Shown piece after piece: positions 7,153-9,887 of a stretch of 64,000 nucleotides of DNA. The DNA lies in sequence record MT446411.1. One strand, 5' to 3'. The position numbers and the translations under genes are program-made. Origin of the DNA: Escherichia virus TH40. The stretch's first letter is position 1; every line of letters starts with the position of its first letter. The notes beneath the pieces are model-generated. The model did no database searches, was not told the DNA's origin, and was given only the letters and a program-made list of their open reading frames with translations.

Positions 7153-7247
7153 TTTTTATCTATCTTATTACCAATAAACATACCAACAATCACACCTGCG
7201 ATTGCCGCGAAAATACAAAGCAATGCAAACTCAACTCCAAAACTCAT
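7149..7247 (-). CDS. small hydrophobic protein (32 aa)
   Basis: MSFGVEFALLCIFAAIAGVIVGMFIGNKIDKN; start overlaps the gp52 stop (ATGA). Confidence 0.4.
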   Translation of the reverse strand: MSFGVEFALLCIFAAIAGVIVGMFIGNKIDKN

Positions 7248-8623
7248 AGAGCCTCCAAATCATTAAGGTACTCAGTTTTAACGTCAGTTGTCTTCCAGTA
7301 CTCATGCTCAGCTTTCTTAGCCTTAGCTTCGTCCGCAAGCTTCTTAGCTTCATCAGAGGTCATATGGTAGATGTTCATTGCCACTAACTTCTCTGCATAA
7401 TCGCCATATATTTCACTCGCCTGGAGCTCCTCAATCAACTTCTTACGAGGTTTCCCCTGGATAACAACCTTACCATCAATCACTTCTTTAATAAAGAAGA
7501 CTTTCGCGCGGGCCAGTTTAAATGCCGCTTCAGTTTCTTTAATCTTACTGTCAATTCGCACTTGGACATAAGTCTTACGGACATCAACGAAATCGCGAAT
7601 CAGGTCAAGCGTGTTGGTGTATTCAGCCAGTTTGCCTTTATGATTAAGCACCGTTAAGTTCTGGGAGAGCTTCTCAATCAGACCAAAGTCTTTCATGATT
7701 TTCTCATGATTTTCTTCTTCAGTGCCATCCAGCTTGTATTCCTTACGGAATTTAATCTTAAACCCAAAACCATGCTCGCCACAGTTATCTTTCCAGGTGA
7801 TAAAACCTTTCTCTTCCAGCGGGTCCAGGATTTTACTTGTATACTTTTCCAGGTTCCATTGGACCGGGATTTCAGTAATTTCCATTTGAGTCCTGGAAGT
7901 CATTTTGTACGTGCCATGAAGCTCATACTTACCAGGCTCTTCCAGCTCAACAACTTTACCACGGAATTCTGGATATTTTACTTTCGGAGCAACCGGCTCA
8001 CGACCTTCCACGATAGCTTTAACAGCTTCCTTGACGTCCTGGAACGAATGAGGAAGGATATCAGTAGCAAAGCCAACAGCAATCCCAGAAGTGGCGTTAA
8101 GTAATACAGTAGGAATAACAGGAAGATAAAAAGCAGGAGGCTTATGTTCTTCATCAGGATGGACCGGAGCATATTCTGTATCCTTAAACAAGTTATAAAA
8201 GTTCTTTGAAACCCTTGCGAATACATAACGAGCTGATGATGCTTCTGGCACCATTCTGGAACCAAAGTTACCTTGCCCATCAAACATAGGATATTCATTT
8301 TTATATGTTGCGACCAAACCAGAAGTTGCTTCTTCCGCTGATGCTTCACCATGGTGATAACCATAATCAGCTACGCCCCCTGCGATGGATGCAACCTTAT
8401 GGAATTTATTCTTATCACCACGTGCCAGGTCTAATGCTCTCGCCATAACAAATCTGTGAACTGGTTTAAAACCATCAATCATGTTTGGGATGGCACGACC
8501 TTCCACAGTGTAGATAGCATATGACAATGCTTCCACATCAATAATGTCTTTTAGACTGCGTGGGTTAAGGGTCCCCATGGAATCACTGAACTGTTTGGAC
8601 ATCATACTTAAAACGTCAGACAT
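7244..8623 (-). CDS. 52: DNA topoisomerase II medium subunit gp52 (GyrA-like)
   Basis: 459 aa; ...AIPNMIDGFKPVHRFVMARA... Confidence 0.9.
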   Translation of the reverse strand: MSDVLSMMSKQFSDSMGTLNPRSLKDIIDVEALSYAIYTVEGRAIPNMIDGFKPVHRFVMARALDLARGDKNKFHKVASIAGGVADYGYHHGEASAEEATSGLVATYKNEYPMFDGQGNFGSRMVPEASSARYVFARVSKNFYNLFKDTEYAPVHPDEEHKPPAFYLPVIPTVLLNATSGIAVGFATDILPHSFQDVKEAVKAIVEGREPVAPKVKYPEFRGKVVELEEPGKYELHGTYKMTSRTQMEITEIPVQWNLEKYTSKILDPLEEKGFITWKDNCGEHGFGFKIKFRKEYKLDGTEEENHEKIMKDFGLIEKLSQNLTVLNHKGKLAEYTNTLDLIRDFVDVRKTYVQVRIDSKIKETEAAFKLARAKVFFIKEVIDGKVVIQGKPRKKLIEELQASEIYGDYAEKLVAMNIYHMTSDEAKKLADEAKAKKAEHEYWKTTDVKTEYLNDLEAL

Positions 8624-8631
8624 ATATCACC

Positions 8632-8772
8632 TTACCAGATTAACGAATGTACTGCCATTATAGCATCAGAAATAAAAAGCACAACCTGCACTAATGCAAA
8701 CACAACTCCATAATATAGCGCTACCAATAAGGCAGCAAGGGCTAACGAGTAGCCCAAGATTTTCTTAATCAT
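8632..8772 (-). CDS. small membrane protein (46 aa)
   Basis: MIKKILGYSLALAALLVALYYGVVFALVQVV...; ATGA overlap with upstream ORF. Confidence 0.45.
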   Translation of the reverse strand: MIKKILGYSLALAALLVALYYGVVFALVQVVLFISDAIMAVHSLIW

Positions 8773-8917
8773 TTTTATCCAATAATTTAAATAGTGTTAA
8801 AGTCGCTAATACACCTTGAGCTGTTGACTGCAGAAATACTGAAGTTTCTCCAGTTATTAATGTTCCAACAAATAAAAATGACCAACAGAAAAAAGCTACG
8901 CCATGAACAAATTTCAT
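8765..8917 (-). CDS. small membrane protein (50 aa)
   Basis: MKFVHGVAFFCWSFLFVGTLITGE...; SD gagg; preceded by hairpin element. Confidence 0.45.
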   Translation of the reverse strand: MKFVHGVAFFCWSFLFVGTLITGETSVFLQSTAQGVLATLTLFKLLDKND

Positions 8918-8919
8918 AT

Positions 8920-8985
8920 TTTCCTCAAGGGCGCCCAAAGACGCCAGTTAATTTCAGATTATGACGATGCCATTGCATCGCTACA
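8920..8985 (-). repeat. ~66-bp repeated intergenic hairpin/SD element, copy 1
   Basis: Near-identical to 9184-9249; contains GGCGCC-CAAA-GACGCC hairpin directly 5' of gaggaaaatATG. Confidence 0.6.
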
Positions 8986-9027
8986 GGCAGCAAGGGCTAA
9001 CGAATAGCCCAAGATTTTCTTAATCAT
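8959..9027 (-). pseudogene. truncated duplicate (22 codons) of the 8632-8772 gene N-terminus
   Basis: MIKKILGYSLALAA then diverges where the repeated hairpin element begins. Confidence 0.3.
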
Positions 9028-9182
9028 TGTTTAGCTAACCTAAGTAAACCAACAAAAGTAGAAATAACCCATGCAATAAACAATGCACCCATGAAGAAGG
9101 TACTTGGAGTCCAGACTCCTAAAAAGAAGCAGGTTGAACAAACAATAGCTATAATAAGTTCAATAAAAACTAGGATAATCAT
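9024..9182 (-). CDS. small membrane protein (52 aa)
   Basis: MIILVFIELIIAIVCSTCFFLGVW...; SD gagg; ATGA overlap downstream. Confidence 0.45.
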   Translation of the reverse strand: MIILVFIELIIAIVCSTCFFLGVWTPSTFFMGALFIAWVISTFVGLLRLAKQ

Positions 9183-9183
9183 A

Positions 9184-9249
9184 TTTTCCTCAAGGGCGTC
9201 CAAAGACGCCAGTTAATTTAAGATTATGGCGATGCCATTGCATCACATG
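9184..9249 (-). repeat. ~66-bp repeated intergenic hairpin/SD element, copy 2
   Basis: GGCGTC-CAAA-GACGCC perfect 6-bp stem; same flanks as copy 1. Confidence 0.6.
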
Positions 9250-9262
9250 TTCATTATGGAAA

Positions 9263-9436
9263 TTACTCATATATACCACACATTTTACATAAACGTTCAA
9301 AACAGATATACCCACCACTAAAGCACATAGTAACAGCAACTTTATCATTAAATGGAGCACCAAAGGCTATAAAGGCTCCTGTAATAACAAATAGTGCTAA
9401 AACAAATAGGTAACCCATTGCGAAGAAATGTCTCAT
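9263..9436 (-). CDS. small membrane protein
   Basis: ORF trimmed to [20 protein letters not shown]... just after the ndd stop. Confidence 0.4.
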
Positions 9437-9437
9437 A

Positions 9438-9887
9438 TTAATAACTCTGCAGAATGAATTTAAAGTTATCAGCAAGCATGCGATTCATTTCTGAAAGGGT
9501 CTGGCAATCAGAACTATGCGAGCGAGTGAACGCCATCGCAATTTGACCTTTACCATAACCAGTTGTCAGAGGTTTCATTTTAGAAACTGGGACAAACAGG
9601 ACTTCATAGATAACCCCATTGTTCGCCATTGTGCGAGACAGTTGAGAACGCTGTTTGCGGATGTGGCTTAATACAGTGTCAAACCCTTGTTGTGAACGTT
9701 GGTTACCAACATAAAACCGTGCAGCAACAATACGTGATTCGCCTTCACCTTTAACCACGAAATAAAAACCTGGTTGAGTGATAGCTTCTTTAGTTGGGCG
9801 ACCTGCAACATAATTACCATTATGAATATAAGCAACAGTGGTAGCGCCAGCATTCAGTACGTCACGACGGGTCATGTAAGTAGTCAT
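9438..9887 (-). CDS. ndd: nucleoid disruption protein Ndd
   Basis: 149 aa; ...[28 protein letters not shown]...[15 protein letters not shown] matches T4 Ndd. Confidence 0.85.

Follow-up and report, generated by a model that had tools for sequence, protein, structure and literature searches.

Genes and direct repeats between ndd and gene 52

We analysed the ndd-stp-ac-52.1-52 early gene cluster in a stretch of 64,000 nucleotides (nt) from Escherichia virus TH40 (sequence record MT446411.1; hereafter the window), in which two small membrane-protein genes, here called cassette genes A and B, stand in tandem between stp and 52.1. The best DNA matches of the window were Gapriverviruses (Tevenvirinae), indicating a Gaprivervirus-like relative of T4. 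The gene order of T4 is ndd, stp, ac, 52.1, 52, and the minus-strand order in the window was stp, A, a 52.1'::stp' scar in which a remnant of 52.1 is joined to a remnant of stp, B, 52.1, 52 (Table 1). The Ndd protein of the window was 99-100% identical to the annotated Ndd of phages UPEC07, UPEC01 and MN01 and 61% identical to T4 Ndd, and its gp52.1 was 87% identical to T4 gp52.1. The flanks of the slot between stp and 52.1 formed conserved islands: at the nucleotide level the window and T4 were 79% identical in stp and 85% in 52.1, but ndd reached only 64% and the 5' end of gene 52 only 61%.

A repeat search of the window revealed a 66-nt direct repeat with copies 95% identical and a 47-nt direct repeat with copies 96% identical. 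In a pattern search allowing up to three mismatches, each repeat was confined to its two sites, and no dispersed copies of either were found elsewhere in the 64-kb window. Shuffling gave 0 matches in 100 trials (chance expectation 0). These results demonstrated that the repeats are real and beyond chance. A preliminary description of this DNA, made from the letters alone, had reported that a segment encoding an MIKK N-terminus and a hairpin element of about 66 base pairs (bp) each occur twice. The first proved to be the 47-nt repeat, and the second was likewise present in two copies, although the coordinates reported for it were off by about 5-6 nt, the homology ending at 8979 and 9244 rather than at 8985 and 9249. 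The MIKK segment comprised the first 14 codons of gene 52.1, and the first 43 nt of the intact gene corresponded to copy 1 of the 47-nt repeat. As had been described, the second MIKK copy was a truncated copy of the downstream gene, which we identified as T4 gene 52.1, and it was cut short where the element begins: the homology to 52.1 ended at 8985, after codon 14, and was followed by five bases and then by the element from 8979.

The four small minus-strand open reading frames (ORFs) of 46, 50, 22 and 52 codons given in the preliminary description were all present, and they resolved into 52.1, an Ac homologue (B), the scar and A, respectively. Their reported chaining by ATGA overlaps was correct for A and the 22-codon ORF but not for the other pairs, since B and 52.1 overlapped by 8 nt (ATGATTAA) and the 22-codon ORF and B were separated by a 41-nt gap. 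The reading of the region as a duplicated module was right in that the module is doubled; the genes between the repeats, A and B, are unrelated and are not duplicates.

Table 1. Coordinates of genes, repeats, remnants and hairpins at the locus (window positions; aa, amino acids; GRAVY, grand average of hydropathy; SD, Shine-Dalgarno sequence).
Feature	Positions	Strand	Description
ndd	9438-9887	-	nucleoid disruption protein, 149 aa; upstream anchor
orf57	9263-9436	-	57 aa, hydrophobic, phrog_5941; optional ORF between ndd and stp
stp (intact)	9190-9270	-	26 aa; PF08133, phrog_6763, similarity to T4 Stp, T4 position
66-nt repeat, copy 1	9179-9244	-	stp codons 10-26, stop, SD GAGG (9188-9191), ATGA of A; region holds hairpins 1 and 2
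Hairpin 1	9229-9246		7-bp stem, AAUG loop
Hairpin 2	9195-9210 and 8930-8945		in copy 1 of the 66-nt repeat and in the stp' remnant
Cassette gene A	9024-9182	-	52 aa, very hydrophobic (GRAVY 1.81), phrog_9347
52.1' remnant	8980-9027	-	first 43 nt of 52.1 (47-nt repeat copy 2, 8985-9031), then GTAGC (8984-8980)
22-codon ORF	8959-9027	-	MIKKILGYSLALAACSDAMASS; opened by the 52.1' remnant
stp' remnant (66-nt repeat, copy 2)	8914-8979	-	stp codons 10-26 and stop (8925-8978), SD GAGG (8923-8926), ATGA of B; supplies putative translation-initiation region of B
Cassette gene B	8765-8917	-	50 aa; homologue of T4 Ac ('acridine resistance' membrane protein), phrog_2501
47-nt repeat, copy 1	8730-8776	-	5' end of intact 52.1
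52.1 5'-end hairpin	8739-8755 and 8994-9010		in intact 52.1 and in the 52.1' remnant
52.1 (intact)	8632-8772	-	46-aa membrane protein, PF24129 (DUF7396)
Gene 52	7244-8623	-	topoisomerase II medium subunit; downstream anchor

Identity of stp and its remnant

Previous work has reported that the 26-aa Stp peptide inhibits type Ic restriction (EcoprrI, EcoR124I) and activates PrrC, and that its N-proximal 18 residues are implicated in activity (PMC3014915). The intact stp ORF of the window scored 55.3 bits on PF08133 (anticodon nuclease activator; gathering cutoff, 25 bits) over profile positions 1-25 and matched phrog_6763 with E = 2e-19. The encoded peptide was identical to T4 Stp at 20 of 26 residues (77%), with residues 1-11 identical and 15 of the 18 N-proximal residues matching. 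The profile score, the N-proximal region and the position after ndd and before ac and 52.1 all placed the intact copy in the Stp family, with orf57 intervening between ndd and stp in the window. The 66-nt unit, which the preliminary description had taken for an inserted hairpin/SD element, was found to consist of stp codons 10-26 with the stop, followed by the SD and the ATG of the next gene. The second copy, stp', scored 24.8 bits over profile positions 10-25, just under the cutoff, and was therefore not counted as a family member. It lacked residues 1-9; in the window it had Met10 and an open 17-codon ORF in the stp' frame. For annotation, the supposed hairpin element thus becomes an unannotated or mis-annotated 26-codon stp, which encodes an anti-restriction peptide and trigger of PrrC abortive infection.

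In Gaprivervirus records, stp was mostly unannotated. In UPEC07 and UPEC01 the annotation gives it as a hypothetical protein of 52 codons, read in the stp frame from a start within orf57 (window 9190-9348; locus coding sequence 753-911). The homology to T4 and to genomes without orf57 indicated that the internal ATG at 9270 is the true start. Stp-like peptides were also found on contigs and genomes of about 42-48 kb resembling siphoviruses (vB_EcoS-Ro145clw, BEK6 and Salmonella seszw), the set comprising loci L030, L032, L033, L035, L036, L044, L046, L047, L050 and L058 and phage records H128-H140 and H183-H185. These stp genes lay outside the T-even ndd/ac context and were without the hairpin-forming codons. 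Their distribution points to a horizontal spread of the anti-restriction peptide.

Identity of the cassette genes

B aligned globally with T4 Ac at z = 9.7, a score reached by 0 of 500 shuffles, and matched phrog_2501. It was 100% identical to a protein of MN01, and its close homologues, in UPEC01 among others, are annotated as acridine resistance proteins. Being a hydrophobic protein of about 51 aa, similar to T4 Ac and encoded between stp and 52.1, B was assigned to the Ac family. It has been reported that Ac confers acriflavine sensitivity on infection, and a block of AcrAB-TolC efflux has only been proposed (bioRxiv 10.1101/2025.06.30.662393). A did not qualify as Ac (z = 1.8 against T4 Ac; hhalign probability 1.4%). 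We also considered whether A and B could be diverged alleles of one gene, and the pairwise z of 0.4-1.8 together with the hhalign value of 1.4% ruled this out. The sole feature common to both is a C-terminal KND, which is imposed by the overlapping start of 52.1. A was the only slot occupant in UPEC07. Genes of the A family were present in 76 phage records and genes of the Ac/B family in at least 250. A diverged A-like gene was seen in the group of VR20, VR25 and VR26.

Single-copy arrangements and the novel joint

The preliminary description had proposed that the element inserted into a duplicated gene. Comparison with relatives refuted this idea, because single-copy arrangements exist in UPEC07, UPEC01, MN01 and T4, and these relatives represent the two parental states. 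UPEC07 has the A-type arrangement ndd-orf57-stp-A-52.1-52, and the B-type arrangement was found in UPEC01 (ndd-orf57-stp-B-52.1-52) and MN01 (ndd-stp-B-52.1-52). As a comparison of UPEC07 with UPEC01 revealed, the difference between the two states coincides exactly with one ORF, the one that runs from the SD/ATG downstream of stp to the start of 52.1. By pairwise BLAST, window positions 10016-8985 were colinear with A-type UPEC07 at 94.5% identity, and positions 8979-7000 were colinear with B-type MN01 at 98.0% identity. The two sides were separated by the five bridging bases GTAGC, which match 52.1 after a 5-nt deletion (TATTG).

The same doubled architecture and joint, including the 5-nt deletion, were found in EAWsc9 and DCP80. 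In these two phages the joint reads GTAGCGCTGTA followed directly by ATGG, with homology to 52.1 as far as about codon 20 and then to stp at the shared ATGG, and the crossover would accordingly be placed at or next to this shared ATGG. Since the derived 5-nt deletion is common to three diverged genomes, the joint reflects one real inherited event and not an assembly error. The joint sequence TTAGCCCTTGCTGCCTGTAGCG was present only in the window, EAWsc9 and DCP80, and a search for the window-type joint in IMG/VR and JGI metagenomes gave zero matches; IMG/VR yielded only 15-18 loci, and the GenBank phage collection was more informative. Taken together, direct repeats bound the doubled unit, a novel joint absent from the single-copy relatives lies within it, and each side is colinear with one parental arrangement.

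In the DCP80 record (PQ671644), which is 140,978 bp long and includes runs of N, the region from ndd to 52 occurs at two places, with the doubled A and B locus at about 137 kb (L004) and a single-copy A locus at about 33 kb (L041). The two loci were only 96-97% identical, and this ruled out that both had segregated from a single doubled locus. Probably the record combines two haplotypes, or else it is mis-scaffolded.

Hairpins within the repeats

Folding confirmed two small hairpins in the 66-nt element. The 72-nt stretch around the unit had minimum free energies of -21.9 and -21.7 kcal/mol in the two copies, with z = -3.3 and -2.3, respectively. Hairpin 1 reads GUGAUGC-AAUG-GCAUCGC and was specific to MQWHR-type stp. 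As a conserved structure it was ruled out, because the T4-type stp, with MQFYR codons, is unable to form it. Hairpin 2 reads GGCGUC-UUUG-GRCGCC in the window. In its general form (GGCGUC-UUYG-GRCGYC, over the GVFGR codons), its six pairs were kept in 7 of 7 T-even variants, T4 included; all changes were one-sided transitions to a G·U pair, and no double compensatory changes occurred among the seven. The stp genes on siphovirus-like contigs of about 44 kb served as a control. They encode nearly the same peptide (...KGVFGK), and their codons pair at only 2 of 6 positions; therefore, hairpin 2 is a nucleotide-level feature of T-even phages and is not forced by the peptide. The results are no more than suggestive of selection on hairpin 2, whose role may be to stabilise the mRNA or to organise the region of initiation. 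Hairpin 2 takes the form C(UUCG)G in T4, JS98 and UPEC07 and has the loop UUUG in the window; the C(UUCG)G class was first noticed in T4 mRNA (PMC4371310).

A further hairpin, GGGCTA-N5-TAGCCC, lies within the first 43 nt of 52.1 and recurs in the 52.1' remnant. Its stem was kept in T4, JS98 and the Gapriverviruses, and its loop varied. GGGC/GCCC inverted repeats have been described where T4 deletions end (Mosig et al. 1998, cited through PMC2839356), and, as far as that second-hand account goes, the GGGC...GCCC arms of 52.1 recall the endpoint motif and may be regarded as a lead. The extra 31-nt deletion of phage NC-G, described below, starts 3 nt past GGGC.

No promoter-like site (sigma-70-like, with -35, -10 and AT-rich upstream elements) was found within 8914-8985 or 9179-9250. 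The terminator-like matches were the hairpins themselves on the antisense strand, with no real T-run, and the repeat had no credible family match in Rfam.

Recurrent stacking between stp and 52.1

A tblastn search with Stp matched 740 phage records, only 12 of which had two matches. These were the window-type phages EAWsc9 and DCP80, the Dhakaviruses JS98 (two records), IME281 (two records), EcWhh-1, UP19, Esco_phi_B-01 and NC-G, and KNP5 (two records). In Shigella phage KNP5 (KX452698, NC_055713; 193,624 bp), one of the two Stp matches lay at 218-292, and the second match is probably terminal redundancy left in the assembly, not a doubled locus.

The JS98-type order was stp, Ac-like gene, 52.1'::stp', A, 52.1, the reverse of that in the window. 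The joint lay at GAGTAAT, a microhomology of 7 nt that 52.1 has in codons 22-24 and stp in codons 1-3. The JS98-type 52.1' carried a 1-nt frameshift, and NC-G had lost a further 31 nt of the remnant. Judged from these sequences, the JS98-type doubling is independent of the window-type event. In NC-G (MK310184; L039:1535-1642), the 1-nt and 31-nt deletions put the start of 52.1' in frame with the second stp. The resulting unannotated 35-codon ORF, consisting of MIKKSWATVLR and 24 further residues, scored 61 bits on PF08133 and was ATGA-coupled to the upstream Ac-like gene, suggesting that NC-G may express two different Stp variants.

Two tandem Ac-family genes were found on the metagenome contigs L048 and L049 and in 51 of 557 matching Tequatrovirus records (about 9%), some of which are annotated 'acridine resistance (x2)'. 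Each pair consisted of one B-like and one T4-like gene between stp and 52.1 (L048:161-703, L049:4433-4978 and records H251-H265), and the joint was almost scarless (AAAAATAGTTGAGGAGAATATTATG). These comparisons indicate that stacking at the slot arose independently at least three times.

The neighbouring orf57 was present in the window, UPEC07, UPEC01 and JS98 and absent from EAWsc9, DCP80, MN01 and T4. Its insertion or deletion was bounded by the direct repeat ATATGAG, located at the ndd stop and orf57 start and again at the orf57 end and stp start, so that orf57 represents another microhomology-bounded cassette.

Origin of the doubled locus

We consider it highly probable that the doubled locus arose by an unequal illegitimate crossover that joined an A-type genome to a B-type genome and left both genes in tandem. 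In the proposed mechanism, T-even phages have a single small membrane-protein gene in the slot between stp and 52.1, and it belongs either to the A family (phrog_9347) or to the unrelated Ac family. A stp-A-52.1 genome and a stp-B(Ac)-52.1 genome would have met in a mixed infection and recombined illegitimately, joining the 5' part of 52.1 of the A-type genome to stp codon 10 of the B-type genome and giving the product stp-A-[52.1'::stp']-B-52.1. The 52.1'::stp' junction would be the novel junction of this crossover, not the site of an element inserted into a duplicated gene, and as a consequence of the crossover the two repeats would be the duplicated conserved flanks of the slot, namely the stp 3' end with the cassette SD and the 52.1 5' end. 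The 52.1' piece is frameshifted, and the 22-codon ORF would be a by-product. Tolerance of the scar is presumably due to the position of the joint, which lies after the start of 52.1 and before the SD of the cassette that follows. Upstream, each cassette thus retains its native ribosome-binding site, and downstream its native stop/restart overlap. If each of the ORFs is translated, stp' would give B its native hairpin-SD-ATG context and 52.1' would give A its native stop/restart context, and the chain of coupled small ORFs into gene 52 would thereby be preserved.

Several observations weigh against this origin. The left side of the window was just 94.5% identical to UPEC07, and the A gene is itself a mosaic, its products in the window, UPEC07, EAWsc9 and DCP80 sharing 72-79% of their amino acids. 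Exact parents are lacking, and the order of events is therefore reconstructed rather than observed. In addition, the window joint GCGATGCAATGGCATC differs from that of EAWsc9, GCGCTGTAATGGTATC, at three positions and from that of DCP80, GCGCTGTAATGACATC, at four. All of the differing positions make the window identical to intact stp, and they are most simply explained by later gene conversion towards intact stp; a slightly different ancestral joint is conceivable instead, and the crossover requires one or the other. Furthermore, three diverged genomes have retained the doubled state, although direct repeats of 47 and 66 nt would be expected to promote deletion. This persistence could reflect selection for both genes, which an account in terms of a scar alone leaves unexplained.

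A single crossover is the most economical origin, and a two-step route is possible. In such a route, an intragenomic tandem duplication of the segment from the stp 3' end through A to the 52.1 5' end would have produced an A-A locus, one A of which was later replaced by B through the duplicated flanks. T4-type phages do form tandem duplications and swap cassettes precisely between conserved flanks, as seen between UPEC07 and UPEC01, and cassettes were exchanged further after the doubling, given that the window, EAWsc9 and DCP80 have the joint in common yet diverge in A and B. However, this route needs two events rather than one; the 740 records with stp included no A-A or B-B intermediate with the window-type joint, and the 12 that matched Stp twice were all accounted for otherwise; the repeat copies are not identical (95-96%); and from the first base past the joint, the right side is 98% identical to B-type MN01. 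We regard the two-step route as improbable. The colinearity on the right also bears on the insertion, into one copy of a duplicated MIKK gene, of a discrete mobile or regulatory hairpin/SD element of about 66 bp resembling the PeSL (promoter-early stem-loop) linkers of T4-type phages, because past the joint the window runs colinear with a whole B-type genome and not with an insertion. Although the unit has two hairpins and ends in an SD and ATG as PeSLs do (PMC2839356), and the truncated MIKK copy ends where it starts, the unit is stp coding sequence colinear with intact stp, has no sigma-70-like promoter, is found at this locus alone within 64 kb, and in every relative forms part of stp, immediately ahead of the cassette gene. 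An inserted element is thus a most improbable explanation. As for an assembly artefact, in which A-type and B-type reads collapsed into a chimeric contig, the DCP80 record with its single-copy A locus, doubled locus and runs of N demonstrates that mixed assemblies occur in this group. Chimeric assembly would not, however, create a gene-internal joint with a 5-nt deletion, nor one common to three independently sequenced, diverged genomes, and we consider an artefact almost certainly excluded.

The illegitimate crossover leaves the 52.1'::stp' joint as a probably non-functional scar, and a functional joint was weighed as an alternative. The 5-nt deletion turns the 52.1 N-terminus into MIKKILGYSLALAA followed by CS..., which resembles a lipoprotein signal with the lipobox LAAC and an 8-residue mature part; the LAAC reading follows the general lipobox motif rule. 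The 22-codon ORF might accordingly encode a mini-lipoprotein (MIKKILGYSLALAA before the cysteine, mature part CSDAMASS), or the stp' frame a 17-aa modulator or decoy. In favour of function, the 22-codon ORF kept its native ATGA coupling to A and an equal length in the window, EAWsc9 and DCP80, and the deletions in NC-G, by restoring a second stp in frame, indicate that a second Stp can be regained. Nevertheless, the 8-residue tail varied at 3 of 8 positions among these close relatives (CSDAMASS, CSAVMVSS and CSAVMTSS), and its constant length is passive because the stop codon sits in conserved stp sequence. In-frame stops in the stp' frame of EAWsc9 and DCP80 ruled out a truncated Stp' peptide as a conserved product, and such a peptide would be without residues 1-9, which belong to the N-proximal stretch implicated in Stp activity. 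In the analogous scar of JS98 there is no more than a 9-codon ORF, and decay of the scar is seen both in these stops and in the further 31-nt deletion of NC-G. A functional joint therefore appears very unlikely.

The locus offers a clean natural example of accessory-gene stacking by illegitimate recombination, in which the parental states and the joint can be identified. Because it is bounded by 47- and 66-nt direct repeats, the doubled locus can in principle resolve to either single-gene state. It is thus convenient for measuring repeat-mediated deletion, and for asking whether the A and Ac families are redundant, complementary or host-specific.

Comparison with known systems

The T4 stp-ac-52.1 cluster (NC_000866, 165209-165585) shares the order and flanks of the window, and hairpin 2 is also present at the 3' end of T4 stp. 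T4 has one slot gene, whereas the window has two unrelated genes, the 52.1'::stp' scar and the extra orf57 between ndd and stp.

Previous studies have reported that the PeSL linkers of T4-type phages consist of a conserved stem-loop with SD/ATG flanking shuffled small ORFs and accompany cassette replacement, insertion and deletion (Arbiol et al. 2010, PMC2839356; Comeau et al. 2014, PMC4122927). The stp 3' end and the 52.1 5' end of the window act like such linkers, as the comparison of UPEC07 with UPEC01 illustrates, and hairpin 2 followed by GAGG-N5-ATG corresponds to the stem-loop and SD/start of a PeSL. In contrast to PeSLs, which carry a strong sigma-70-like promoter and recur in many copies across hyperplastic regions, the flanks in the window are promoterless, coding rather than intergenic, restricted to one locus and not terminators. 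Moreover, the doubling joint was formed by illegitimate recombination at 1-7 nt of microhomology and not by homologous exchange between linkers. It could be supposed that the stp-52.1 interval is a dedicated micro-hotspot, whose hairpin-bearing coding flanks serve as promoterless PeSL analogues for swapping, stacking and re-segregating cassettes, and that carrying two cassettes is selected. We consider this unlikely; the stackings, at least three and independent, and the persistence of the doubled state are compatible with it but do not show it. If it were true, host variation in efflux-related functions or in type Ic restriction/PrrC, for example, could select for the two cassettes and for the second Stp of NC-G.

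The JS98-type Dhakavirus locus has the slot, the two gene families and the type of 52.1'::stp' scar found in the window. It differs in its reversed order, in its joint at GAGTAAT and in the retention of nearly all of stp'; its two stp copies also differ from each other, one being protein-identical to the Stp of the window and the other T4-like. The Tequatroviruses with tandem ac genes (Aplg8, SHBML-50-1, PhiZZ6, ESh29 and others) resemble the window in having two cassettes stacked between stp and 52.1. There, however, both cassettes belong to the Ac family, and all that marks the joint is a stretch of about 20 nt similar to the SD region at the stp end, without a coding remnant of stp' or 52.1'.

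The classical tandem duplications and deletions of T4, such as the rII-region duplications, form at short homologies, and the doubling in the window is likewise an illegitimate recombination of this classical kind in a highly recombinogenic phage. The window agrees with them in having a novel joint at a very short homology and direct repeats that flank the doubled unit. It differs in that its two units carry different cargo, and for this reason the partners were probably two different genomes. Collectively, these comparisons place the doubled locus within the ordinary mosaicism of T4-type phages.

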